From the IMG/VR virus record IMGVR_UViG_3300045988_105372, positions 51,462 through 115,461 of that record: a stretch of 64,000 nucleotides of DNA; one strand, given 5' to 3'. Of this stretch, positions 470 through 55,236 are shown in pieces (the stretch's first letter is position 1; the number at the start of each line of letters is the position of its first letter). The stretch is from a virus. The position numbers were made by a program, and so were the translations under genes. A model generated the notes under the pieces. That model had not been told where the DNA came from and ran no database searches. It was given only the letters and a program-made list of their open reading frames with translations.

Positions 470-1813
470 TTATTTCAAAATTAAATTTTTTGTTTCATCT
501 AAAAAAGAGAGTGTATCTATTATTTTAGAATTAGAATAATTATAAGGAATTTCTATCAATTCTAATTTTCCTGGATGTTTACTACATATTTTTCTTAATA
601 AATTATCTCTTCTAATTTGTTTTTGAAAATCTTCTTGACTATTATGAAAAAATGGGATAAATTCATAATGTTGCTTTCCATTATATTCTATTATATAAAT
701 ACAATCATTATGTTTCACTATGAAATCTACTATAATTTTATTAGAATTACGTGCTATTTCCTTAGTCTTTATCTCATATTGAAATTTATATTTACAATGA
801 TATTTGTTTAATAAACTTTTTATAAATAATTCTCCTTTACTAGGCTCTATTTGTTCTCTAGCACATTCAGGGCATTTACACCCCTTTAAATGATTGCCTG
901 GTAATTGCTCAAATTTACCATGCTTTGGGCAAATAATAGTAATTGGAGTTTTATAATTTATATAATTAACTTCGCTATAATCATATTTCCAACCATGAAC
1001 TTCTCTAGCTTTTCTTATAAAATCTTCTTTAGTTAAAGTATAAGATTCTATAGCACAATCTGGACAATATCCATGATGGTATATTAAAGTTGATGCTAAT
1101 ATATTAAAATCTCCATGTTTTGGACAAGTTAAAATTACTGAATTAGTTATTCCAGTATAAACAGTTTTATTTGTAGTATATTCGGGATGAATTTTCTCAC
1201 ATTCTTTAATAAATTCATCTTGAGTAAATCTGAAAGTATTAGTACATTTAGGACATCCATTTTTACAATTTAAATGCTGGTAAGGTAACTACCAAAATTC
1301 TCCATGTTCAGGGCATATAATACAAACTTTTTCTCTACTACCTTTAAAATCTACTTTTGAATAATCAAATTTATAATTATACTTTTCATTAGCAGCTTTT
1401 ACAAAATCCTCTTTGGATCTAATTACTTTAAAATCTTTACTTTTTCCTCGGCATTCCTTACAAGCACATTGTCCTTTTAAATGATTACTAACTGTTTGCC
1501 AAAATTCTCCATGTTCAGGGCATATGATACATACTTTGTTATTAGTGCCCGTATAGACTACTTTGGAATAATCATATTTATTATTCCAAATTTTATTTGC
1601 TTTTCGTATAAAGGTATCTAAATCAAATTTTTTACCTGAACAAATAGCACAACCTCGTCCCTATAAATGTGAATTTGCTTCTTGCACAAACACTCCATGA
1701 ATAGGACATATTATCTTAACTTTATCTTTTGATCTAGAAACTTCTACTAGGGAATAATCATACTTATTTCCATGAATTTCTTGAGCTTTTTTAATAAAAT
1801 ATTCTTTATTCAT
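470..1813 (-). CDS. multi zinc-ribbon protein (5 repeats of YDYSxV...K(V/I)xIICPxHGxFxQ...HLxGxxCxxC) with C-terminal PD-(D/E)xK-like (DUF559/Vsr-like, D...EYNGK) domain; two in-frame TAG codons at 1661-1663 and 1289-1291
   Basis: manual translation: open from ATG 1811-1813 to TAA 470-472 except 2 TAGs falling at conserved repeat positions (HL[TAG]G, EFW[TAG]); track only lists the 82-aa C-terminal fragment 470..718. Confidence 0.6.
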
Positions 1814-4043: not shown

Positions 4044-5569
4044 TAATTATTTCCTTTAATAGTTCCCATCAAAATATCTTTATCTTTTACAATAGTATAA
4101 TTAATACTCCATTTAGTATGTCCAAAATTAGCTGTAATATAATTACTACTACCATACATACTACCTACTGATATATAATCAAATCGTTTACCAGTAGTAT
4201 AAGCATAATTATGTAAATCACCTTTTACTACATAAATATGAGGACTACATATACCTTTTTCTGCTATATAATTAGCAAAGAATAATTCAGTCTGAGGATT
4301 TAAAGTAAGAGGAAATTGTCTAGTCTGAGAATTATTATCTTTACCATGAGCATATAGGAACTGATGATCTCCAATGATAAAGTTATCAATAGGATAGTTA
4401 CTAATATAACTCTTAATATTATATTTAGTTAAATATGCAGCTAAGAGTTTTTGATTTAACCATTCAAAATCCCCACCATGATTAGATTCTCCTATAGAGA
4501 GATAATTAAAATCTTCACTTTTTACTTTTACTGTAAGAGTAGCAAAAAACTCCATCATACACTCTATAAATGCTTCACTAATTTCTTTATTATCAAGAAT
4601 CTCAGGAAGCTCATGACCTCCTCTAGTAGTTTCTTTATTGAACCCATCAATAGAATCTCCAAGATTAACTACATATACAGAATGATATTCTTGTCCCACA
4701 AAAGATTCCACAATTCTAGATAATCTAGATTTAATTTCTGGAACATCATAAGAAGGTAACTGTACAAAACTACTATATTTAGCATTATAAGCTCCAATAT
4801 GTAAATCAGATAACCATATAATTAAATCAGGATATTTTGCTTCTTTATTATTAATATTTACTGGAAGCTCTTTATAATCCTTTACTGTATTTTTAATAGT
4901 ATCTTCTATAAGTTCCTTATTTAAAGACTTAGAGGTTTCCTTAGTTAACTTAGTAACTAAAGCTCTTAAATCCTTTACCTCATCTTTCTCTATTCTTTTT
5001 AAGAAATCATTCTCTTTTTCCCTAAGATGCATTTCTTTTAATTCATCCTCAGTATATTCTTCATACATATGAGGAGCAAATGGAGAGGATGCTTTAGTAA
5101 TATTAAAAGCTCGTAAAATTCTTTTAAAGTCAATAAGAGAATAATCTGGGAAATATCTGCTGACAATCTGCTGGGTTAAACCAGAACCGTAATAAGTATA
5201 CATTCTATATACACTATTCATTTCGTTTCTAGTAAAGACTCCTGTGATTGCGGGCTTATTTCTTCTGAAAATCTCAAACTTATATCCAGTAATTTTACCA
5301 GTCTCCTCGTCTCTTATTTCCCAAGTATTAGAAGCATCATCCGTATCTTTCTTTACTTCTTTTTTCTTAGTATCCTTTAGTCTATCATATAATTCCAATA
5401 TCTTCTTATCATCTTCATCTTTATTTTCTTTCTTTCTAAGATTTCTCATTGTAATATATACAGTATTTATATTTTTTCCTGATATAGTACACTGAGCTTT
5501 TAAAGAACGATTATTATTAATTGCATCATTAAAGAACTTAATATAAGAAGATTTTGTTGCTTGTTTCAT
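4043..5569 (-). CDS. calcineurin-like metallophosphoesterase domain protein (508 aa)
   Basis: motifs LSDLHIG (DxH), NLGDSIDG (GDxxD), ESNHGGD (GNH[DE]-like), YAHGK, GDLHNY in C-terminal half. Confidence 0.6.
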   Translation of the reverse strand: MKQATKSSYIKFFNDAINNNRSLKAQCTISGKNINTVYITMRNLRKKENKDEDDKKILELYDRLKDTKKKEVKKDTDDASNTWEIRDEETGKITGYKFEIFRRNKPAITGVFTRNEMNSVYRMYTYYGSGLTQQIVSRYFPDYSLIDFKRILRAFNITKASSPFAPHMYEEYTEDELKEMHLREKENDFLKRIEKDEVKDLRALVTKLTKETSKSLNKELIEDTIKNTVKDYKELPVNINNKEAKYPDLIIWLSDLHIGAYNAKYSSFVQLPSYDVPEIKSRLSRIVESFVGQEYHSVYVVNLGDSIDGFNKETTRGGHELPEILDNKEISEAFIECMMEFFATLTVKVKSEDFNYLSIGESNHGGDFEWLNQKLLAAYLTKYNIKSYISNYPIDNFIIGDHQFLYAHGKDNNSQTRQFPLTLNPQTELFFANYIAEKGICSPHIYVVKGDLHNYAYTTGKRFDYISVGSMYGSSNYITANFGHTKWSINYTIVKDKDILMGTIKGNN

Positions 5570-11754: not shown

Positions 11755-12496
11755 TTAAAATATTGTCATCATTATTGGTTTCATTATGGTCATCTGCGAT
11801 TTCTTCTTCTTCCTCACCATATTCAAAGTTATGGATAGTATCTAAAACCTTCTGCATATTAGGTTCAATCAGTTTATCTTTAAAACATCCATCAACACTA
11901 CGACAAGTATCATTACCATTGGTTTTGGTTCTAAAGAAATAACTAATATTGCCCTCATCATCAACCTGACGTTCAGTATATAAAATATAAGAAAATAAAC
12001 CATCAATATTTACAGTTCTATCCAACATTTTACCACTAGAATATAACTGCCAATGTTCATCGAGGTCAGTACCAGCATTAATAATATGACTAATGAATAC
12101 TACATTAAGATCTTCACGCAGTTCACTAGCTTCCATGATTAAATCATAGTAATTTTTAGCAAACACAACGTGCTTATCCCAACCTTTTTCAAGGGCAGAA
12201 TCCATTATATTATTTGAAAGACAATAGTTAGCATCATCTACGACTACTGTCTTAATATCAGAACGTAATTTATCAATAATCTTTAACCACTTACCAATAG
12301 TAGTATAATCATTAGACACAAGCCAATTTCCAACTGGCTTCTTATTTACAACTTCAGCTTTCTTGTACTTACGTCTAAATCCAGGAATTTGAAGTTGCTT
12401 GTTAGTACAACTAATGATAAATGTTGATTTATAATCTAAATAACGCAAAGAAGTGCTTTTTCCGGTACCACTCAAACCTGCTAAACCAATAATCAT
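11741..12496 (-). CDS. P-loop NTPase (251 aa), Walker A GLAGLSGTGKST at N-terminus
   Basis: Walker A at residues 4-15; kinase-like or RecA-like. Confidence 0.5.
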   Translation of the reverse strand: MIIGLAGLSGTGKSTSLRYLDYKSTFIISCTNKQLQIPGFRRKYKKAEVVNKKPVGNWLVSNDYTTIGKWLKIIDKLRSDIKTVVVDDANYCLSNNIMDSALEKGWDKHVVFAKNYYDLIMEASELREDLNVVFISHIINAGTDLDEHWQLYSSGKMLDRTVNIDGLFSYILYTERQVDDEGNISYFFRTKTNGNDTCRSVDGCFKDKLIEPNMQKVLDTIHNFEYGEEEEEIADDHNETNNDDNILNEAN

Positions 12497-13575
12497 AAAC
12501 TATAGTCTAATTTATTTTTCACTTTTTCATCTTTATCTTCATTCTTTATTGTATTATCTGTTGAACTGTTATTTGTAGCTCGATATCTAGAATAATCAAA
12601 GATTTCTTCTGGCTTAGGCATTTCCATCCACTTATTTACTGCTCCGTCAAAGAAACAGCAATCAGCTACTTGGTTTTCTCCATATCTTGACTTTAGTACA
12701 AGAATACTTCGAAACCTATAACCCATTTCTTTAACTTGGTAACCTCTATAAGTTGTTCTTTTATCAACTTGAGGATTATATACAGCTAAAATAATTTCAG
12801 AATTCTCTGAAACAGTGGATGTTTCCTTAATATCCTCCACCATTGGCTCCATGAAAGCTTCATTCTTTTTTCTTTCCATGTTAGCCACTGCTCTATTGGA
12901 TTGCATAACAATAATTGGAGATAATCCTGTTTTATTTCTAATGATAACTAATTTATTAGTATAATCATCAATTTCTCCTTTTCTGTTTCTTCCATTGGAT
13001 GGTTGGATCAATCCAACATGGTCAGTTACTGAAAGTATTACTTTTTCAGGGTCTTTCGGAATATATTTATTCTCTGTAAATTCTCCTTCTTTTTTAAGCT
13101 CTTCCATTGTAACTTTTATGAGCCTATCAGAATTAAAAGAGCCTTCGTATATAGTTAGTACTTTATATACTTTTTCTAGCCAATCATATCCTAGTTGTAC
13201 ATACTCATATAAATCATCAGGTAAAATATAATCTTTACCTATAGATAATATTTGTTTAGCAGTTACAACAATATGATAGGTATCATATAAATAGGTACTT
13301 AATAATTTAGCTATAATAAAGTCTTCTTTCATTTCAAGAGCAAAGAAAATAATTTTTAATTTATTATCTTCTAAATGTTCTTTTAAAGGAGCATATATGT
13401 AAGAATATAATACACATGAACTTTTACCTTGTCCTGAACTCGCAAATAAAAGAGTCATGGTACTTTTAGTAATACCTCCTATTAATTCTTCCAATTTAGG
13501 AAGACCCATACTAAATCCTTGATTAAATCCTTGTCTACCAAGCTCTATCGAACGTTTAAAACTTTCTAAACTCAC
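12493..13575 (-). CDS. DnaB-like replicative helicase C-terminal (RecA-fold) domain protein (360 aa)
   Basis: Walker A LLFASSGQGKSS, Walker B-like ILSVTDHVGLI. Confidence 0.5.
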   Translation of the reverse strand: MSLESFKRSIELGRQGFNQGFSMGLPKLEELIGGITKSTMTLLFASSGQGKSSCVLYSYIYAPLKEHLEDNKLKIIFFALEMKEDFIIAKLLSTYLYDTYHIVVTAKQILSIGKDYILPDDLYEYVQLGYDWLEKVYKVLTIYEGSFNSDRLIKVTMEELKKEGEFTENKYIPKDPEKVILSVTDHVGLIQPSNGRNRKGEIDDYTNKLVIIRNKTGLSPIIVMQSNRAVANMERKKNEAFMEPMVEDIKETSTVSENSEIILAVYNPQVDKRTTYRGYQVKEMGYRFRSILVLKSRYGENQVADCCFFDGAVNKWMEMPKPEEIFDYSRYRATNNSSTDNTIKNEDKDEKVKNKLDYSL

Positions 13576-14261: not shown

Positions 14262-15392
14262 TCAGAATCTAAAATCAAATTTAGGAACTATCTTTTCACC
14301 TGGGGTAAAGTCTTTACCTTGTAATACTTTATCCAATTCTGATTCGTCTATAGTTATAAAAGAATCTCCCTTATGAGAATCATAAAACCACTTGGTCTCT
14401 TGAGTCCTATTTAATACTATATTGAATATCTCTGCTGTCTTACCTTTTTCAAAGCGGATTGATCTTCCTCTCCGTTGACAAGCTCTAGTAGTTGAACTAT
14501 CTAATCCAAATATAATAGCTACAGAAAGACCTTTTACATCAAGTCCTTCATCAGCTTTTTTTACTGTAGATAATAGAGTCACCTTTCCAGAGTTAAAATC
14601 TTCAATAGCTGTAGCACTTCTTTTCTTAGAAGTTCTACTAGAATATACAGTAGCATTAGGAATTTTTTCTGCCATTTTAATATTATTAGCAAAAGTTATT
14701 ATTTTTTTATCCTTTCTAGCTTCTATAATTTTCTTTACTATTTCAATTTTCTTTGAATGATTATTTATGAAAGCTTTTTTCTCATGCATAGTAGACCAAA
14801 ATCTGATAGCATGATAATTTATATTTTGCAATACTTCAGATTTTTTGTTAGGATCACTACACATAGAATCTCTTAGGAGTAGTTTATTTCGCCAACCCAT
14901 AGGACCGGCTAATTTATTAACTAACTCCCAAGAGAATCCGAAGAATTCAAAATGAGAAATGAATTCTTTATTTATTTTTTCATATTCTTCTAAATCATCA
15001 ACATTTACTAAGACTAGATATTCTTTATATGGGCTAACCCAACCATTTGCAAGACAAGTATTAATATCAATAGTATCAATTACTGGACAGTATTTTGCTA
15101 ATATTTTATCTCTACCATCAAGACGCTCAAAAGTAGCTGTAAGACCTAAGATAAATTGGTATTTTACTACTTCAAATAATCTTACAAAAGTCTCAGCTGC
15201 ATATCTATGCGCTTCATCCAGTACTAAAAGATCATATTTGGCAGGATGTTTTATTACAGTGTTTATTATTTGTACATCACAACTTAATCCTAGCCCATTA
15301 GAATCTATATGACCACACCATTGTTTTTGTAAAGTTTCTGTTGGCACAATTATTAGTACTCGATATTGTGGAAAGTGTTTTAACACTGTTTT
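14262..15392 (-). CDS. SF2 (DEAH-box/SNF2-like) helicase, C-terminal exon/segment carrying KT of motif I, motifs Ia (LIIVPTETL), II (LDEAH), III (TATFER), V, VI (QRRGRSIR)
   Basis: ORF track 14262..15386 begins with GTG; in-frame extension AAA ACA (K T) gives ...KTVLKHFPQYRVLIIVPTE; motif I N-terminal part lies 350 nt upstream. Confidence 0.6.
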   Translation of the reverse strand, partial: KTVLKHFPQYRVLIIVPTETLQKQWCGHIDSNGLGLSCDVQIINTVIKHPAKYDLLVLDEAHRYAAETFVRLFEVVKYQFILGLTATFERLDGRDKILAKYCPVIDTIDINTCLANGWVSPYKEYLVLVNVDDLEEYEKINKEFISHFEFFGFSWELVNKLAGPMGWRNKLLLRDSMCSDPNKKSEVLQNINYHAIRFWSTMHEKKAFINNHSKKIEIVKKIIEARKDKKIITFANNIKMAEKIPNATVYSSRTSKKRSATAIEDFNSGKVTLLSTVKKADEGLDVKGLSVAIIFGLDSSTTRACQRRGRSIRFEKGKTAEIFNIVLNRTQETKWFYDSHKGDSFITIDESELDKVLQGKDFTPGEKIVPKFDFRF

Positions 15393-15741
15393 AATACAGT
15401 TTAGTCCTACTCTGGATTTCGATTTTGTTATCGTATAGTTTTTTATCTATACTTCTTACTATTACTAGCAAGTCCCGCATAAATTTTTACCCACTTATTT
15501 CAGTTGGGGTATCGAACACTCGTGGAGAAATTATATTCTAATGAAAATAGTCTAGCTATTAACTAGATTATTTATTAGTTTCATTCTCTATGCTGTACGG
15601 TGTAGAAGATTCTTTAATTTCTTCTATTACCTCGGTATTACCCTCTATAGGGCTTTCACCGATTTTGCTCGATGATAATTCCGAAGATTCCTCTATCGGA
15701 ACGGCATCGTAATTAACAGGTATATGACCCGCTTTTACAGT
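15393..15741 (-). other. ~349-bp intervening element inside helicase Walker A (between GFG and KT codons); candidate intron or other insertion
   Basis: upstream ORF ends ...GTIVASTGFG then loses helicase similarity; downstream resumes KTVLKHF; flanked by ACTGTAAAA / ACTGTATTAAAA direct repeats; contains R/S-like CCAGAGTAGGACTAAAC. Confidence 0.35.
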
Positions 15742-15873
15742 ACCAAATCCAGTAGATGCGACTATTGTCCCTACACAACGATTTTTTATCCATTTTCTAC
15801 GACACTCTTCTTGTCGTTCATCTCTAGTGATTTTATGAAATAGTTCTCCTTCAATCAGAGAGTTTGTAGCCAT
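15568..15873 (-). CDS. helicase N-terminal segment (Q-motif region + first half of Walker A ...VGTIVASTGFG) followed by out-of-context 57-aa tail
   Basis: ORF track; ASTGFG matches AxTGxG of SF2 motif I. Confidence 0.5.
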   Translation of the reverse strand: MATNSLIEGELFHKITRDERQEECRRKWIKNRCVGTIVASTGFGTVKAGHIPVNYDAVPIEESSELSSSKIGESPIEGNTEVIEEIKESSTPYSIENETNK

Positions 15874-26370: not shown

Positions 26371-26740
26371 AAATTAAATAATAAGATTAAATAATTGGAG
26401 GCATGTATAATCTACAATACTGATTAGCATACCAAGTCCAACCCTTCTTAAATGCTTTTAAAGTTCTTTTTAAAATTTTCATCATAATAAATCAAATTTA
26501 AAGTTTAACTTATAAAATATCTAGGAGGAGAGTTTAAAAAATTAAGAATCCCAGGTAAATCACCCCTGTTAGAGACATGGTCTCTATTTTTATTATTTAG
26601 GATTCTATAGGAATGCAAAAAACCATCGAATCATTCCAGTTCGTAGGTTCTACGACACCTAATAGGCGAGTATGCATCGTTGAGAGGCACCCTATAAGTT
26701 ACGTTGCTCCTGTAACTAGTATTCTAGAGCTTTATCATAG

Positions 26741-26818
26741 TGTGAGATGTGGGAATCAAACCCACGCAAGCCTTCACATTGGAAGTGTGATGTGCGCCTT
26801 CAACTACACTAATCTCAC
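26741..26818 (-). tRNA. tRNA-Gly(UCC)
   Basis: manual cloverleaf: acceptor GTGAGAT/ATCTCAC, anticodon arm TCACA-CTTCCAA-TGTGA, T-arm GTGGG-TTTGATT-CCCAC. Confidence 0.6.
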
Positions 26819-26830
26819 ATTGTTTAATAG

Positions 26831-26904
26831 TGGAGCGTAGGAGATTCGAACTCCTAAGAATGCCTGCGTGCAAAGCAGGTGCTGACCATTTGAGCCGACG
26901 CCCC
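26831..26904 (-). tRNA. tRNA-Ala(UGC)
   Basis: acceptor GGGGCGT/ACGCTCC (G3:U70 present), anticodon arm CCTGC-TTTGCAC-GCAGG, T-arm TAGGAG-TTCGAAT-CTCCTA. Confidence 0.7.
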
Positions 26905-26914
26905 AAATTGGAGA

Positions 26915-27391
26915 TTACTCTCCAGTTAATTGTTTTATTTTAAGTTTAGCTTGTGTTAATTTATATATTAAATCAGATATAGTATTTTTATTATCTTTAA
27001 GCTGCTTTCTAAGACCTTTAATAGCTAATTTCATGCTATTAAAGTCTTTCAAATTATTTGCCATAGATTCTAATTCTCTAAAAGACTTAGTATCATCAAA
27101 TAAAGATATATTAACTTTAGCTCTTAACTCTCTAATTTTAAGATTCTGTTTCTCAATCTCATTTTCTAAAGACTGAATCTTATTATTTAAAGATTCTATA
27201 CCAAGTCCATTTTCTAATTCATCTATATAGGATTCTAATTCTCCGATTTTTTGTTCTAATCCAGCATAATGCTTTTTTCTTTCAGCATCATACTCTTTAA
27301 ACCTATTTATTTTGCTTTTTAAAACAGCTATAATAAAATCCTTTTTATCATAAAAGTTTGCGTCAGATTGATAATTAAAAGTTTTTTTCAT
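26915..27391 (-). CDS. coiled-coil protein (158 aa)
   Basis: ORF track; heptad-rich LE/IE sequence. Confidence 0.45.
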   Translation of the reverse strand: MKKTFNYQSDANFYDKKDFIIAVLKSKINRFKEYDAERKKHYAGLEQKIGELESYIDELENGLGIESLNNKIQSLENEIEKQNLKIRELRAKVNISLFDDTKSFRELESMANNLKDFNSMKLAIKGLRKQLKDNKNTISDLIYKLTQAKLKIKQLTGE

Positions 27392-27413
27392 ATTATTTAT
27401 TTTTTTTAATTAG

Positions 27414-27485
27414 TTGTGGGTATTGGACTCGAACCAATGACCGTTTGCTTATGAGACAAACAAGCTACCACTGCTACAACCCACG
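27414..27485 (-). tRNA. tRNA-Met(CAU) (C1:A72 mismatch)
   Basis: anticodon arm TTTGT-CTCATAA-GCAAA, T-arm ATTGG-TTCGAGT-CCAAT. Confidence 0.6.
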
Positions 27486-27494
27486 ATATTAAAG

Positions 27495-27566
27495 AGCTTC
27501 AAGTAGGATTTGAACCTACGACCCGCACTTTACAAGAATGCTGCACTACCACTGTGCTATTGAAGC
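27495..27566 (-). tRNA. tRNA-Thr(UGU)
   Basis: acceptor GCTTCAA/TTGAAGC, anticodon loop CTTGTAA, T-arm GTAGG-TTCAAAT-CCTAC. Confidence 0.65.
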
Positions 27567-27712
27567 TTAAATAAAGGCGAATATGGCATTAGACGGGCGA
27601 ACTATCGTGACCATATTCTAATAATACATTGAGCTATCAGGCATACTCGTGGATCGCCACCGCTACCTCTAACAACCGCCTAGTTAAATGCTAGGTCCTC
27701 TCCATTATTTGC

Positions 27713-27788
27713 GGAATATAAGGGACTCGAACCCTTAGTTTTACTAGAGTGACAGTCTAGTTCCCTTACCAACAGGGCTTAATACTCC
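27713..27788 (-). tRNA. tRNA-Asp(GUC)
   Basis: anticodon arm CTAGA-CTGTCAC-TCTAG, T-arm AAGGG-TTCGAGT-CCCTT, acceptor GGAGTAT/ATATTCC. Confidence 0.65.
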
Positions 27789-27799
27789 ATGTGTCTTTG

Positions 27800-27880
27800 C
27801 GCCTAGACTAGGATTCGAACCTAGGAACCTTTCGGGGCAAGTTAACAGCTTGCTGCCGTTGACCACTTGGCTATCTAGAC
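27800..27880 (-). tRNA. tRNA-Asn(GUU) with unusually long (11-nt, CCCGAAAGG mini-hairpin) variable region
   Basis: anticodon arm GCAAG-CTGTTAA-CTTGC, T-arm CTAGG-TTCGAAT-CCTAG, acceptor GTCTAGA/TCTAGGC. Confidence 0.5.
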
Positions 27881-34150: not shown

Positions 34151-34182
34151 AAAAACAAATAATAAAAACAGTTCTATGAACT

Positions 34183-34300
34183 AGTGGAGCATTGGAGAGT
34201 CGAACTCCAGTCTTGCATATTTGCATCAAAACGTTCTTACAGCATAGGTTTTAAAGACTATCCTTGTCTGTTAGGGTTGACAAGATTAGCATTGCCAACT
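34183..34300 (-). ncRNA. tRNA-like element: perfect T-arm TGGAG-TTCGACT-CTCCA and 3' acceptor-like ATGCTCCA but no canonical D/anticodon arms
   Basis: manual inspection; lies in 650-nt non-coding region. Confidence 0.25.
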
Positions 34301-34646
34301 TCCACCACTCTGTTCCTAAAGTATACAGAGAACTAATAAAGAAATAAAAGAATAATGCACCTTTCCGTTCCCAAGCAAGTGCTGCTCGGTTTCTTAGGCT
34401 GCAATAGCGTAAGAAACAGGAGTCATATTGATAACTCTAGCGATTATTGTTTTGTTGTCTCTCCAACTGTCTTGCTGTGTTTCTTATCTCCTATACAATC
34501 AAAACCACGAATGCCCCAATTTAAAAGAGTCCTAAGTTAGAACTCTTTTATAAATTAGTGTCTACCACGTAAATAATTGTAATTATTATACCAATCATCT
34601 GGATCTATTCTATCTTCATTATCCATAATTTAAAACTTAATTAATG

Positions 34647-45668: not shown

Positions 45669-45797
45669 CTGTTTTTGAGTTTTTGTAAGTCCTCCGACTT
45701 ATTAAAGTTTTCGCACAATTTTGATAAGAGCTCTACTTTCACAAGCAAAACTCTTTTATTTTTAACAACTTATAAATTAAAATAATGATAGAAAAAG

Positions 45798-45869
45798 GAA
45801 ATGCGGACAGATTTGAACTGCCAATCTTCTACTCTACGATAGACGCTCTAGCTATTGAGCTACGCATTT
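45798..45869 (-). tRNA. tRNA-like gene with 4-bp anticodon stem and 8-nt loop UCGUAGAG (canonical acceptor AAATGCG/CGCATTT, D-arm GCTC/GAGC, T-arm GGCAG-TTCAAAT-CTGTC)
   Basis: manual folding. Confidence 0.4.
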
Positions 45870-45896
45870 CTATATATACTAGTATTGCTATATAGC

Positions 45897-45937
45897 CTTA
45901 TTTAAAAACTCATACTACTTTCGCAAGCAGTATGAGT
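45897..45937 (-). terminator. hairpin (9-bp stem ACTCATACT/AGTATGAGT, loop ACTTTCGCAAGC) followed by U-run in minus sense
   Basis: perfect 9-bp inverted repeat; loop shares TACTTTCRCAAGCA with hairpin at 45740-45770. Confidence 0.4.
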
Positions 45938-46013
45938 TAATGTGTAAGTCATTTTATTGACTTATCAACTCAACTACAAGAAATTCATCAATTTTCACAA
46001 ATTAATAATTAAT

Positions 46014-46093
46014 ATGTCGCTTAGACGGGATTCGAACCCGTAAGACCATTCCTGGTCAAGGGATTTTCCTACTACACTTGCTTTTATACAAGC
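46014..46093 (-). tRNA. tRNA-like gene with canonical T-arm ACGGG-TTCGAAT-CCCGT but aberrant D/anticodon region (loop TTGACCA)
   Basis: manual folding. Confidence 0.3.
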
Positions 46094-46096
46094 TAA

Positions 46097-46201
46097 CTTA
46101 AATAAAGGGATTCGAACCCTTAATCCTCAAGAGATATTTAATGACGACTTTAGAGGCGCTTCCGTCAATCTGCTGCCGTATACCAATTCCGCCATATTTA
46201 A
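46097..46201 (-). tRNA. 105-nt tRNA-like gene (acceptor TTAAATA/TATTTAA, T-arm AAGGG-TTCGAAT-CCCTT) with ~30 extra nt in the body (contains CUCUAAAG)
   Basis: manual folding. Confidence 0.3.
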
Positions 46202-46694
46202 GTTATTGTAGTCTGGACTATTTTATTACCTTATCAATTAACTTCGAAGTAAGGAATTAGGTTTTACCTCTCTCAATGAGCGTCTCCTTTTTTACATAAT
46301 GCATTATTATTATAACCTTATTACTAAGGATGAAGTCTAAACCATTCCTTTTAATTAACTTAGGTATCTCCTCTATAGTCTCTACACATTTATGCTGTAA
46401 CACTCCAATTTACATTTAAGATAGATTAGCGTTCTATCACAATTTAGCTCGTCACCACCAAAACCTATGTTACCATAAGTGAGGCTTCTGTCGCAAGTTA
46501 ATTAGATTTCTGAATACTGCTTCTATAATCATTACTCTGCTTCTTACACAGATGCTAACCTTTTTACAATTAGTAATTAACTTGTTTAATTAGGGAGATT
46601 CTACTTCTATTATTTCTAATAGAGCACTCAAATTCACCATTACTGGTGTTCCAAAAGTCCCTCGTGTATCCCAGTTTCACCACTAAGCGATAAA

Positions 46695-46726
46695 GCAACT
46701 AATTATCTGCTAGTTGCCAACAATAT
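46695..46726 (-). repeat. 32-nt repeat GCAACTAATTATCTGCTAGTTGCCAACAATAT (hairpin GCAACTA/TAGTTGC); second copy at 49157-49188
   Basis: identical by eye in both copies; precedes tRNA-Arg at 49 kb and a degenerate tRNA-Gln-like remnant here. Confidence 0.7.
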
Positions 46727-46757
46727 TTATTTTATAAATCCTATAACTATTATGGTA

Positions 46758-47117
46758 TTACAGTTGTTTTAACATATTTGTAGCTACATATAATGAAATA
46801 TCCACAGTTGTATGAATATCATCATTTAATTTTAAGATATATGTATTATTTTCATCATTCTTTCTAGTTATCTCAGATATGTATTTATGATTTATTAAAA
46901 ATCCTTGTGTTGCAAGAATAAAATTAATACATAAAACACGTGAAATATTTTTTAATGAACAACACACAATAATACTATTGCCATGAACATCTATTATAGT
47001 ACTATATTTACCAGATGTTTTTATACATACAATGTCATTTATGTTTATTTGTCTGTACTCTCGTCCCTTAAACACTAAAAATGTATCAGAGTCAATCTGT
47101 ATTGTTTTTATTTCCAT
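46758..47117 (-). CDS. hypothetical protein (119 aa)
   Basis: ORF track. Confidence 0.45.
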   Translation of the reverse strand: MEIKTIQIDSDTFLVFKGREYRQININDIVCIKTSGKYSTIIDVHGNSIIVCCSLKNISRVLCINFILATQGFLINHKYISEITRKNDENNTYILKLNDDIHTTVDISLYVATNMLKQL

Positions 47118-47122
47118 ATCTC

Positions 47123-47512
47123 TTAACCCATAATAAAACGAGCATCTACAATATTTTCAGGATGATGAATAGTTTTAGTTAATCCTATCATCGCCCATTT
47201 CACAATATCAGAATGTTTAACTCCACTTTTAAGTTCATGGTAAAACATTAAATCATAAGCTTCTCCACTTTTAAAAGTTACTTTGATTTTAAATGTAGGC
47301 TTTTCATCATTTCTAATAAGTTCGTCCATTTCTTCATCAGTTACCATGTAACTGAACAGAGGATTAGAAAGATGTTCTTTTTTGTACCTCTTTTCAAGTT
47401 CAGCTAAATTTAACTTTGCACACTTGAGTACATGTTTACAACCAAATTTCTTAGCACTTTCTATTTGTGCTATTAAATTGGTTTTACTAATAAAATAATC
47501 TTGTCTTGTCAT
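47123..47512 (-). CDS. hypothetical protein (129 aa)
   Basis: ORF track. Confidence 0.45.
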   Translation of the reverse strand: MTRQDYFISKTNLIAQIESAKKFGCKHVLKCAKLNLAELEKRYKKEHLSNPLFSYMVTDEEMDELIRNDEKPTFKIKVTFKSGEAYDLMFYHELKSGVKHSDIVKWAMIGLTKTIHHPENIVDARFIMG

Positions 47513-47703
47513 AATTTATCTATAATTAATGTGTTAATAATCTATTTAAATAATAGGCGATTTTCACTGGTTATATTTAAACTATTCCATTGTCCTCAGC
47601 TATCTAACGTTCTTTCTCTTTTTAACCCAAATGATTAATTTTAAGGTAATTACGCTATTTAATAGAGTCGCTGAGAGTTGTTTAGTACCTATTTATTAAT
47701 TAG

Positions 47704-47776
47704 TAGAGGATGACAGAGTTGAACTGCCTATTAGGGAGTCAAAGTCCCTCGTGTGAAACCGTTACACTAATCCTCC
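47704..47776 (-). tRNA. tRNA-Gln(UUG)
   Basis: acceptor GGAGGAT/ATCCTCT, anticodon arm AGGGA-CTTTGAC-TCCCT, T-arm GGCAG-TTCAACT-CTGTC. Confidence 0.65.
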
Positions 47777-47826
47777 GAATAAAATACTATTCTCACGAAC
47801 CATATTTTATATTACAAGTATGAATA

Positions 47827-47917
47827 AAGCGGAGAAAGAAGGATTCGAACCTTCGAGCCATGTAATATGACTAACACCTTAGCAGGGTGCCACTTTCGAC
47901 CACTCAGTCATTTCTCC
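47827..47917 (-). tRNA. tRNA-Ser(GCU), type II with long variable arm
   Basis: acceptor GGAGAAA/TTTCTCC, anticodon arm GCACC-CTGCTAA-GGTGT, variable arm ~18 nt, T-arm GAAGG-TTCGAAT-CCTTC. Confidence 0.7.
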
Positions 47918-47922
47918 AATAA

Positions 47923-47950
47923 AGCTTCCTATCTTCACAGACAAGAAGCC
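47923..47950 (-). promoter_or_regulatory. hairpin with conserved loop CTATCTTCACAGAC (family 1) immediately 5' of tRNA-Ser
   Basis: stem GCTTC/GAAGC; loop identical to 48115-48128. Confidence 0.5.
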
Positions 47951-48029
47951 TAACAACTCTTTAACGTTATAAAGTCCGCTGACTTTATATTTTAAACATT
48001 AATCGTATTAGTTTTTTAAATATGGAAGA

Positions 48030-48103
48030 GTAGCACTAGCGATGCTCGAAATCGCCTTTGGATCTTGAAAGAATCCCGTCCTAACCAGCTAGACGATAGT
48101 GCC
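48030..48103 (-). tRNA. tRNA-Glu(UUC)
   Basis: anticodon arm GGATT-CTTTCAA-GATCC, T-arm GCGAT-TTCGAGC-ATCGC, acceptor GGCACTA/TAGTGCT. Confidence 0.65.
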
Positions 48104-48108
48104 AAGTA

Positions 48109-48136
48109 GATTCTCTATCTTCACAGACTGAGAATC
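48109..48136 (-). promoter_or_regulatory. hairpin with conserved loop CTATCTTCACAGAC (family 1) immediately 5' of tRNA-Glu; different stem (GATTCTC/GAGAATC)
   Basis: loop identical to 47929-47942; stems not homologous but complementary. Confidence 0.5.
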
Positions 48137-48178
48137 TCGTGTATTACAAATGAATACTTTTAATAAATTAAAAATTAA

Positions 48179-48252
48179 TGGTGCTCCCTGACAGTACTGA
48201 CCTGTCTTCCCGAAATTAAAAGTTTCGTGCTTCACCTTAAAGCTTAGAGAGC
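48179..48252 (-). tRNA. tRNA-Lys(UUU), CCA encoded, atypical T-loop GUCAGUA
   Basis: acceptor GCTCTCT/AGGGAGC-A-CCA, D-arm GCTT/AAGC, anticodon arm CGAAA-CTTTTAA-TTTCG. Confidence 0.55.
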
Positions 48253-48296
48253 TAATTTATAATCTTATTTTGCATAGAATTTTATTCTTGTATATA

Positions 48297-48371
48297 GTGG
48301 AGATACGTGGAATCGAACCACAATCTCGGGATTTTCAGTCCCGCGCTCTGACCTTCTGAGCTATATCTCCA
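48297..48371 (-). tRNA. tRNA-Phe(GAA)
   Basis: acceptor GGAGATA/TATCTCC, D-arm GCTC/GAGC, anticodon arm CGGGA-CTGAAAA-TCCCG, T-arm TGTGG-TTCGATT-CCACG. Confidence 0.75.
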
Positions 48372-48478
48372 TAGCCCACATTTCTATAAAGGAGAATAGT
48401 GGTAACACCTACCTATACTAATAAATTTATTAGTCAGGATTTATCCAAACACACTAACAATATATCAAATTAAATTTG

Positions 48479-48561
48479 TACGGTAGAAAGGATTCGAACC
48501 AATGACCTTCTCGAAATGACCTATTATAAAAGAGATGCTCTAACCACTGAGCTACTACCGT
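48479..48561 (-). tRNA. tRNA-like gene (83 nt) with canonical acceptor/D-arm but anticodon stem TCTC/GAGA enclosing 19 nt (contains direct repeat AGGTCATT x2)
   Basis: manual folding; T-arm region ATTGGTTCGAATCCTTT identical to 48992..49072. Confidence 0.4.
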
Positions 48562-48616
48562 AAGTACTAGTTTATATCGGAAAACTAGTAAAACGTTAAC
48601 ACATTATTATGGAAAC

Positions 48617-48967
48617 TTAAAAGCCAAATGAAAACATGGTATTTGCGGAAGTACTAAGAGTTACATAAGGAATTTTATTTCTTACTGTAATAAAGACAAT
48701 AAAGCGTCTTCCTGTATTAACCTCTCCACAATTATGGATTTCTACTCCATCTTTCATTTCAGAAGAGTATATTTTTAATACCATTTTACCAAACTTACTA
48801 TTATTAAAAGTAATAGTTTTTCTAGCTTCATTATATACTACTGAAGTTTTAATGTAAAATGGGTCACTCCATTCACCATCTTGATAAACAGTGATAGAAC
48901 CATAATTAAACGCATGAGCTATTGTAGTTAATACAATAAAACTCATTAATAAAATAATCTTTTTCAT
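48617..48967 (-). CDS. secreted protein with signal peptide (start trimmed to MKKIILLMSFIVLTTIAHA)
   Basis: ORF track 48617..49015; upstream 16 codons would overlap tRNA-like gene. Confidence 0.45.
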   Translation of the reverse strand: MKKIILLMSFIVLTTIAHAFNYGSITVYQDGEWSDPFYIKTSVVYNEARKTITFNNSKFGKMVLKIYSSEMKDGVEIHNCGEVNTGRRFIVFITVRNKIPYVTLSTSANTMFSFGF

Positions 48968-48991
48968 ATTACTCAATCTTTTTAATGTTAG

Positions 48992-49072
48992 TACGGAGTA
49001 AAGGATTCGAACCAATATAACCTCTCTATGAATTGTGGAAATGAGGTGCTCTAGCCATTAAGCTAACTCCGT
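48992..49072 (-). tRNA. tRNA-like gene (81 nt) with anticodon stem ACCTC/GAGGT enclosing 20 nt; paralog of 48479..48561
   Basis: manual folding. Confidence 0.4.
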
Positions 49073-49077
49073 ATATG

Positions 49078-49152
49078 TGGTCCTAATGCGGCTCGAACGC
49101 ATAACATCGAATTTAGAAGATTCGTACTCTAATCCAGTTGAGTTATAGGACC
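49078..49152 (-). tRNA. tRNA-Arg(UCU)
   Basis: acceptor GGTCCTA/TAGGACC, D-arm ACTC/GAGT, anticodon arm CGAAT-CTTCTAA-ATTCG, T-arm ATGCG-TTCGAGC-CGCAT. Confidence 0.75.
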
Positions 49153-51408: not shown

Positions 51409-51504
51409 TTTTTTAAACTATTTAATTATTAATAATGTGCCATCACCTTTCTCATTAAGAGTCTGCTACTTTGGATATGTAGGATGTAGGTTTACACTAG
51501 AGCT

Positions 51505-54747: not shown

Positions 54748-55236
54748 ATTGTTAATGTGTTAAATTTATATTCATAGATACCTAATAACGTACAACTGTT
54801 ACTAGGTATTTCGTCCAGCCTCATCAGTATGAATTTTATAGTCTCCTGGTTGACTAAACAATTTCTCTTACTCCTTGTTTAAGGGAAGCCTCTCTTTTAG
54901 CACCGAGGTTATCGCTTTAATAAATAATGTAGAGTCCTTCAACACTTACTATCCCCTCCACTAATTGTCTTTACGCTTTCTTACTTCTAAAGTCTTTTTA
55001 ATACTTTACCAGTAATACTTTCAATGTGTTACGACGTGCTAAATACTGCCTGTACAAACCTATAAAAGGATAAACATCCGTTCTACTATTTAGCTATATA
55101 CTAGGATGATTTTTCAACTTAATTTAAAACATATTAGATAGGAACAGGTTTTACACAATACCCTGTATTACTTTCCGACTGTAGTACGGCAACCTATAGC
55201 TAGATATATCCTAGCCAGATTTTTTAGATTAAACAC

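Follow-up and report, generated by a model that had tools for sequence, protein, structure and literature searches.

A phage helicase gene interrupted within its Walker A motif by a very probable group I intron

Group I introns in the DNA metabolism genes of phages are classical elements. The subgroup IA introns of T4 (td, nrdB and sunY) and those of the Twort and SPO1 type have a P1 helix with a U·G pair at the end of the 5' exon and an intron-final G, and their core combines a P3/P7 pseudoknot, a P4-P6 domain and a bulged nucleotide beside a G-C pair of P7. A P7.1-type extra helix between P7 and P3' is the feature that defines class IA (PMC3984707). These introns are inserted in critical codons, intron-containing and intron-less alleles coexist, and the endonuclease open reading frame (ORF) is optional. 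All of these properties are shared by the element examined here, which occupies 322 nucleotides (nt) on the minus strand, 15741..15420, of a 64,000-nt stretch of viral DNA (positions 51,462 to 115,461 of IMG/VR record IMGVR_UViG_3300045988_105372; referred to as the window). The element lies in a phage SF2/SNF2-like helicase gene, where it parts the Walker A Gly codon from the Lys codon that follows it (GFG/KS), and is very probably a group I self-splicing intron.

The family to which this intron belongs differs from the described phage IA introns in that the Rfam model RF00028 detects neither the window copy nor a compact relative, and in having P7.1, with or without an extension hairpin, instead of P7.1 plus P7.2. 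The endonuclease of the family is of the LAGLIDADG type, not the usual GIY-YIG or HNH type, and its ORF runs from the P1 loop through the P2-P7 core and is not confined to a peripheral loop. Passages of Yutin et al. (2021; PMC7886860) describe crass-like phages of the Delta and Zeta groups, with genomes of 145-192 kb, as dense in group I introns, which were found through their endonuclease domains; intron richness of crass-like phages is also documented in PMC12386605. The window intron resembles the introns described in those passages in coming from human gut phages with genomes of about 145-192 kb, the contigs here being about 181 kb, in interrupting a core replication gene (structural genes are the other targets given there), in its association with LAGLIDADG endonucleases, which are noted there, and in having a family relative in the crass-like phage cr118_1. 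It differs in that it lacks an endonuclease and would be missed by the domain-based approach that those passages set out. The passages give neither an RNA structure nor exact junctions nor the P-loop site of the helicase. From the ~181-kb size, the replication gene block and a distant helicase match to the SNF2-family helicase of Cellulophaga phage phi14:2, we infer that the window phage is a Zeta-type crass-like phage. The original prediction, made from the letters of this stretch, had considered a second intron, beside one in a tRNA gene, to be worthy of note. Given the intron density described in that part of PMC7886860, a second intron would not be very remarkable, and no group I intron was detected in any tRNA of the window by Rfam, ARAGORN or the intron-family profile. 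The window intron is an ordinary element for an intron-rich phage group. The P-loop inteins of DnaB and other helicases provide a further comparison, as they too are inserted where the codons of an ATPase are most strongly conserved, with the same rationale of an endonuclease recognising an invariant site. Unlike these inteins, the window element would be excised from RNA and not from protein; it is out of frame, includes stop codons and encodes no Hint domain.

The helicase gene is interrupted inside the Walker A motif (P-loop), as originally proposed and as borne out by ORF translations, Pfam matches and intact orthologs. The minus-strand ORF 15873..15568 begins MATNS, continues to RCVGTIVASTGFG and is followed by 57 unrelated codons and a TAA stop, while the minus-strand ORF 15386..14262 supplies the other part of an SF2 helicase, DEAH motif included. 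Exon 1 (15742..15873, minus strand) extends from an ATG at 15873 to the GGT codon of Gly44 at 15744..15742; it encodes MATNS...VASTGFG and is colinear with residues 1-44 of intact orthologs of 429 amino acids (aa). Exon 2 (14262..15419, minus strand) starts with AAA UCC AGA (Lys45 Ser46 Arg47) and ends with the stop codon TGA (14264..14262). The GTG annotated as a start, at 15386, lies within this exon, whose frame is open back to 15446 and takes in the AAA TCC at 15419. Joining 15742 to 15419, with a predicted ligated-exon junction of ...GGAUUUGGU followed by AAAUCCAGAGUA, produced a 429-aa protein in which ...ASTGFG is followed by KSRVGLNCIKTVLKHF... and which is colinear with uninterrupted orthologs. 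Pfam detected ResIII (9.9e-19) and Helicase_C (2.9e-15) in the spliced protein, and both the GFGKS of motif I and the DEAH motif were conserved in the ortholog alignment, in keeping with an SF2 helicase. A protein search with the 429-aa product retrieved 25 clusters of uninterrupted 429-aa proteins with 85-98% identity and 100% coverage, and hundreds more matches at about 55% identity.

The boundaries of the element were fixed by intact orthologs and by intron-less DNA. As the original prediction had suggested, alignment of orthologs located the insertion point: all 14 of the aligned uninterrupted orthologs were ungapped across ASTGFGK[ST]R[IV]GLNCIKTVLKHF, which places the insertion between Gly and Lys. 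The intron is missing from the alleles L064, L071 and L072, and the DNA of L064 matches the window up to GGT (T15742) and again from the Lys codon (A15419). In megablast comparisons with MT835492, a 98%-identical phage, homology stopped exactly after T15742 and resumed inside the element, and a tblastn alignment of the spliced protein to this phage began at residue 45. The 3' half of the element also matched cr118_1 over 124 nt with 84% identity, in a gap between two coding sequences (CDSs) that are each annotated "DNA helicase". The reading of cr118_1 is unambiguous, with ...GISGSG followed by an intron ending ...AAAATTG and then by AAA TCC TCT (KSS). The window counterpart of the intron-final G of cr118_1 is position 15420, after which AAA TCC AGA GTA... 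continues into the downstream ORF without a change of frame. A 5' exon ending in GGT and an intron-final G are common to the window, to both introns of MT835492 and to the cr118_1 intron, and a G was present at the default anchor in 20 of the 25 family members listed with 3' ends and within 2 nt of it in the others. These results indicated that the intervening sequence comprises 322 nt (15741..15420, minus strand) with canonical ends: exon 1 ends GGU (U15742), the intron starts ACUGUAA and ends ...GAUAACAAAAUCG with a terminal G (omega-G) at 15420, and exon 2 begins AAA UCC at 15419. Exact removal of this sequence restores the reading frame.

The first sign of a group I topology came from a by-eye comparison of four intron copies. 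Relatives were then collected with a 20-nt degenerate core motif in IMG/VR, which identified 60 loci, about 51 of them with the whole core, and structure was assessed in 23 distinct relatives from phage contigs by MAFFT alignment and explicit pair counting (19 relatives for the P1 guide and P2). Without input of any model, RNAalifold recovered P3, P4, P5, P6, P7.1 and P9.1, with compensation in 30 of 37 pairs. For the full model with the P3/P7 pseudoknot, 93.9% of cells were paired in the 23 sequences compared to 72.3% in shuffles, none of 500 shuffles matched the observed pairing values, and sliding the partner strands by 1-3 columns reduced pairing to 33-47%. Changes on both sides were detected in 40 of 55 pairs. 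The window intron itself had a minimum free energy (MFE) of -84.9 kcal/mol (z = -5.57 relative to shuffled sequence). The model contains the conserved group I core of P3-P8 with the P3/P7 pseudoknot, the P4-P6 domain and P9.

All helices lie on the minus strand. P1 (15702..15745) pairs the exon-end UGGU (15745..15742) and intron ACUGUAA (15741..15735) with UUACGAU (15712..15706) and the guide GCCG (15705..15702), and its loop holds a small hairpin at 15733..15715. The MFE fold of the isolated P1 region recovered exactly this helix, with U15742 in a U·G wobble with G15705 at the cleavage site. A GCC(G/A/C) guide was placed alike upstream of P2 in 19/19 aligned relatives, and the 5' exon ended GGT in every family member whose 5' splice site was located by reading or folding; the U·G pair is invariant and carries no covariation evidence. 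P2 (15679..15701) is a hairpin of UUCCGA and UCGGAA with the loop UAGAGGAAUCU in the window MFE fold, and in the 19 relatives was 84% paired compared to 57.5% in shuffles, with double changes in 6 of 7 pairs. P3 (15512..15672; UCGAGC at 15672..15667 with GUUCGA at 15517..15512) was 99.3% paired and encloses J3/4 (AAAA), P4, P5, P6, the 5' strand of P7 and P7.1. P4 (15662..15658 with 15636..15632) and P6 (15631..15629 and 15626..15620 with 15609..15603 and 15601..15599) were 98.3% and 98.7% paired, respectively, and compensatory changes were observed in most pairs of P3, P4 and P6. P5 (15652..15649 with 15644..15641) was recovered by RNAalifold.

The P7 helix (15476..15595), which forms the pseudoknot with P3, pairs C-[A]-GCAUA (15595..15589) with UAUGCG (15481..15476) and was 100% paired in the 23 sequences, with the consensus C/G-[A]-G-C-R-U-A opposite U-A-Y-G-C-G/C. 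Two of its pairs covary (GC in 14 and CG in 9 sequences; GC in 15, AU in 7 and GU in 1). Earlier hand pairings for P7, CUCCACG with GCGGGA and then GAGU with ACUU, did not hold in relatives. The bulged A15594 adjoins the G15593-C15477 pair, and the A and the G-C pair were invariant in 23/23 sequences. This is the canonical arrangement of a guanosine-binding site, for which a pocket role is suggested by analogy with Tetrahymena. In that intron, the guanosine-binding pair is G264-C311. An extra helix, P7.1 (15525..15588; GAGAA at 15588..15584 with UUCUC at 15529..15525), lies between P7 and P3', was 100% paired and covaries in 3 of 5 pairs. Its interior forms a variable extension hairpin that contains the TAA of the endonuclease-remnant frame and is missing from compact relatives. 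A helix in this position is said to have been used by Michel and Westhof in 1990 as the definer of class IA, and its presence in the model points to class IA, with a putative subgroup assignment; no separate P7.2 was seen in the intron family. P8 (15508..15490) was a hairpin in every sequence read by eye, and J8/7 (UAAAAAUU) separates it from the 3' strand of P7. P9 (15472..15455) has a GUAA tetraloop and three pairs aligned by MAFFT, all of which were 100% paired, and P9.1 (15452..15433) was 100% paired with covariation in 6/6 pairs.

Several observations weigh against a functional group I intron. No match to Intron_gpI (RF00028), to group II introns or to any other family was obtained by Rfam cmscan (E <= 10) for 15300..15850 of the window, nor was any Rfam match obtained at this threshold for a compact relative (L041 3480..3860); group I membership is consequently based on the structural model and its tested features instead of a curated profile. 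P10 is weak, and P5 and P8 scored low in the MAFFT alignment, at about 65% paired (64.6% for P8), a consequence of the misalignment by MAFFT of hairpins that vary in length. The frame of exon 1 is open for 57 codons into the intron, from P1 to P7.1, before a TAA is reached. Ribosomes could thus translate through half of the core. In many group I introns of bacteria and phages a stop codon soon interrupts the frame and is believed to keep ribosomes out of the intron (PMC3984707), and the intron of MT835492 has a TAA two codons past the splice site. As early stops are thought to be protective and the window frame is open through half of the core, splicing of the window copy may be less efficient. 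Finally, both splicing in vivo and endonuclease-driven homing are steps that we infer. With respect to the profile result, the RF00028 miss reflects the sensitivity of the profile and no structural feature, and the search with this model that had originally been proposed as a check would have spoken wrongly against a group I intron. An nhmmer profile of the family detected 15674..15420 (E = 1.8e-45) as its sole match in the window, and no second copy was found there by blastn of the element, this profile or a core-motif scan.

Comparison with MT835492 indicated how the window copy may have arisen. In the same helicase intron of this phage, 924 nt stand in place of 33 nt of the window (15741..15709), and the extra DNA contains a 319-aa LAGLIDADG endonuclease ORF (L003 4118..5077), whose start lies in the P1 loop and which spans the guide, P2 and the core as far as the P7.1 loop. 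This ORF matched LAGLIDADG_3 (PF14528) with 33.5 bits (cut-off, 22.5), and its match to PF00961 was below the cut-off of that family. The window copy retains only the last ~37 codons of this ORF (SELSSSKIGESPIEGNTEVIEEIKESSTPYSIENETNK) and the TAA, at 15568..15681 on the minus strand, overlapping P2 through P7.1; the MT835492 ORF ends in the same tail. A net deletion of 891 nt has removed nearly all of the endonuclease ORF from the window intron. Because this deletion put the remnant in frame with exon 1, the spurious 101-aa ORF is a fusion artefact. Three alleles coexist in near-identical phages: one lacks the intron, one has it together with the endonuclease and one has it without. The identical 101-aa read-through ORF was indexed in 178 blocks of an assembly collection; the six places listed represented six samples and had the same gene layout, and one contig of 181,461 bp was 100% identical over the helicase gene. 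Divergence between alleles was 1.6% in the intron compared to 3.3-3.9% in the exons, and the changes in P9 keep the pairing. Judged from these sequences, the interruption appears to be neither an artefact nor decaying.

These data bear on the strongest of the alternatives, namely a dead or permanently split gene in which the element is a decayed, non-splicing relic that leaves a 101-aa fragment and a P-loop-less protein of 374 aa (GTG at 15386), or in which the helicase has been dispensed with. The deletion of the endonuclease gene, the open exon 1 frame, which could hinder folding, and the annotation of two ORFs by gene callers are all consistent with this explanation. We nevertheless consider it unlikely, as no core helix of the window copy is damaged, the intron has diverged less than the exons and its P9 changes are compensatory, and the allele recurs widely across independent metagenomes. 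Neither exon carries any other lesion, the protein being 98% identical to intact orthologs, and it is established biochemistry that two polypeptides cannot supply one Walker A motif.

There is very little prospect that the element is instead the ~349-nt sequence (15741..15393) originally described, removed by a non-canonical mechanism with GFG joined directly to AAA ACA in a GKT P-loop. The arithmetic of this version fits, and ASTGFGKT resembles a textbook motif I. However, nine residues, K[ST]R[IV]GLNCI, are kept between GFG and KTV in 14/14 intact orthologs, and the join would delete KSRVGLNCI from the window protein, including the invariant R47 and C52; the 27 nt concerned also exist in intron-less DNA. 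The true P-loop is GKS, and the downstream KT, which belongs to ...NCIKTV..., resembles a P-loop by coincidence. The junction of this version would end in T and not in G, whereas a canonical junction 27 nt upstream, with a U at the end of the 5' exon and a G at the 3' end of the intron, explains everything. The mechanism had seemed obscure because the 3' end of the element had been placed wrongly. The proposal of a spliced RNA and a candidate group I intron was itself supported by structure, covariation and intron-less alleles; it was the particulars that were wrong.

An equally slight chance attaches to a DNA-level mobile element (MITE- or IS-like, with target-site duplication), an intein or translational bypassing in place of an RNA intron: ACTGTAAAA (15741..15733) and ACTGTATTAAAA (15400..15389) do lie near the two ends and P-loops are often targeted by inteins, but the second repeat is conserved exon 2 sequence that is also present in intron-less alleles and hence no target-site duplication, no terminal inverted repeats were seen and no other copy was found in the window, the gap far exceeds any known ribosomal hop, and none of these models assigns a function to a conserved, covarying, pseudoknotted fold. 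The element is not an intein, and recoded read-through was also rejected, because 322 nt is not a multiple of 3 (3n+1) and the frame meets an in-frame TAA. The stretch CCAGAGTAGGACTAAAC, which had been likened to group I R/S elements, is also present in the window; like the second repeat, it is exon 2 coding sequence found in intron-less alleles.

For the group I intron, guanosine-dependent self-splicing is predicted from the structural model. The pre-mRNA would fold into the group I core, and the exon-end UGGU would pair with the internal guide GCCG in P1 and so present the U15742·G wobble. Exogenous guanosine held in the P7 pocket, formed by the bulged A and the G-C pair, would attack after U15742. 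The terminal G15420 would then fill the pocket and the free end of exon 1 would attack after G15420, joining 15742 to 15419. The ligated mRNA would encode the 429-aa helicase with its ASTGFGKS P-loop intact. The intron probably stems from a mobile lineage equipped with a LAGLIDADG homing endonuclease; as nearly all of the endonuclease ORF is lost, the window intron alone would depend on vertical inheritance or on mobilisation in trans.

Related introns were detected at P-loops of another helicase. MT835492 has a second, related intron (74.5% identity; L003 7222..7601), which holds a LAGLIDADG ORF remnant, at GIG/KSS of a DnaB-like helicase, where 404 nt replace 23 nt of the window (13410..13432, minus strand). 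The DnaB-like helicase ORF of the window (12493..13575) is uninterrupted at its Walker A motif (GQGKSS). In cr118_1 (MT774379; L002 2582..3905), a family intron of about 330 nt lies at GSG/KSS of a DnaB-like helicase, and the two "DNA helicase" CDSs in GenBank (QOR58385 and QOR58384) are exons of one gene whose intron is unannotated. Among 25 distinct family members inspected, 11 sit at a Gly/Lys-Ser/Thr junction. Intron-containing helicase alleles read GGT/AAATCC, and the same six bases (AAATCC) occur at the cr118_1 site, while the first two codons of exon 2 (window 15419..15414) are AAGAGC, AAGAGT or AAAACG in the intron-less alleles L064, L071 and L072 (site sequences GGTAAGAGC, GGTAAGAGT and GGTAAAACG). 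This switch of Ser codon class between alleles points to co-conversion at the arrival of the intron, and the codon difference also fits endonuclease-resistant empty sites.

Further family introns were observed at the same GFG/K site of more distant SF2 helicase orthologs (L015 3282..3700 and L025 4226..4479). The L015 intron has its ORF inside the P7.1 loop and not in the P1 loop, so that the position of the ORF within the intron has shifted. On IMG/VR phage contigs, two family introns lie about 1 kb apart (L010 3630..3835 and 4715..4973; L020 327..532 and 641..882), and one of the two splits the DnaE-like motif LRKAVG/KKDAAKL.

Elsewhere in the window, the only matches at the Rfam gathering threshold were tRNAs, a transfer-messenger RNA (tmRNA) and a hammerhead ribozyme. 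The hammerhead (RAGATH-1; 54772..54856, minus strand) was a full-length match with 75 bits (gathering score, 56.3). The tmRNA gene (34182..34517, minus strand) was found by Rfam (RF00023; 48.9 bits, gathering score 47) and by ARAGORN, with the tag peptide ARVINMTPVSYAIAA. Two minus-strand clusters of tRNA genes, at 26740..27880 and 45797..49152, contain about 13-14 genes. ARAGORN reported a "tRNA-???" (45797..45869) whose anticodon has two bases and, at 48478..48561, a tRNA-Tyr with the anticodon ATA, and a tRNA at 48992..49072 was found by Rfam but missed by ARAGORN.

The findings leave the understanding of how group I introns work unchanged, and what they add is modest: an endonuclease-less copy, recurrent use of the P-loop Gly/Lys site in unrelated helicases and a clean three-allele series. 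The helicase of this abundant gut phage should be annotated as one spliced protein of 429 aa, which now appears as ORFs of 101 and 374 aa in many metagenome assemblies. We tentatively raise the possibility, which falls somewhat short of an even chance, that the intron belongs to a large uncatalogued lineage of phage group I introns from gut and environmental sources, with a fixed GCC guide, a GGU codon before every 5' splice site that was located, repeated colonisation of the Walker A Gly/Lys site in unrelated ATPases (SF2, DnaB-like and others) and AAATCC carried along. If so, the pattern would represent P-loop hopping among genes that are not homologous, through ectopic homing or reverse splicing, and databases seeded from the standard Rfam model, which does not see the lineage, would miss it. 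Endonuclease-less introns of crass-like phages escape both protein-domain searches and Rfam, and hence the intron load of crass-like genomes is probably under-counted. The three-allele series, together with the copies in the P-loop of another helicase, provides a compact natural series for the homing cycle and for ectopic spread.

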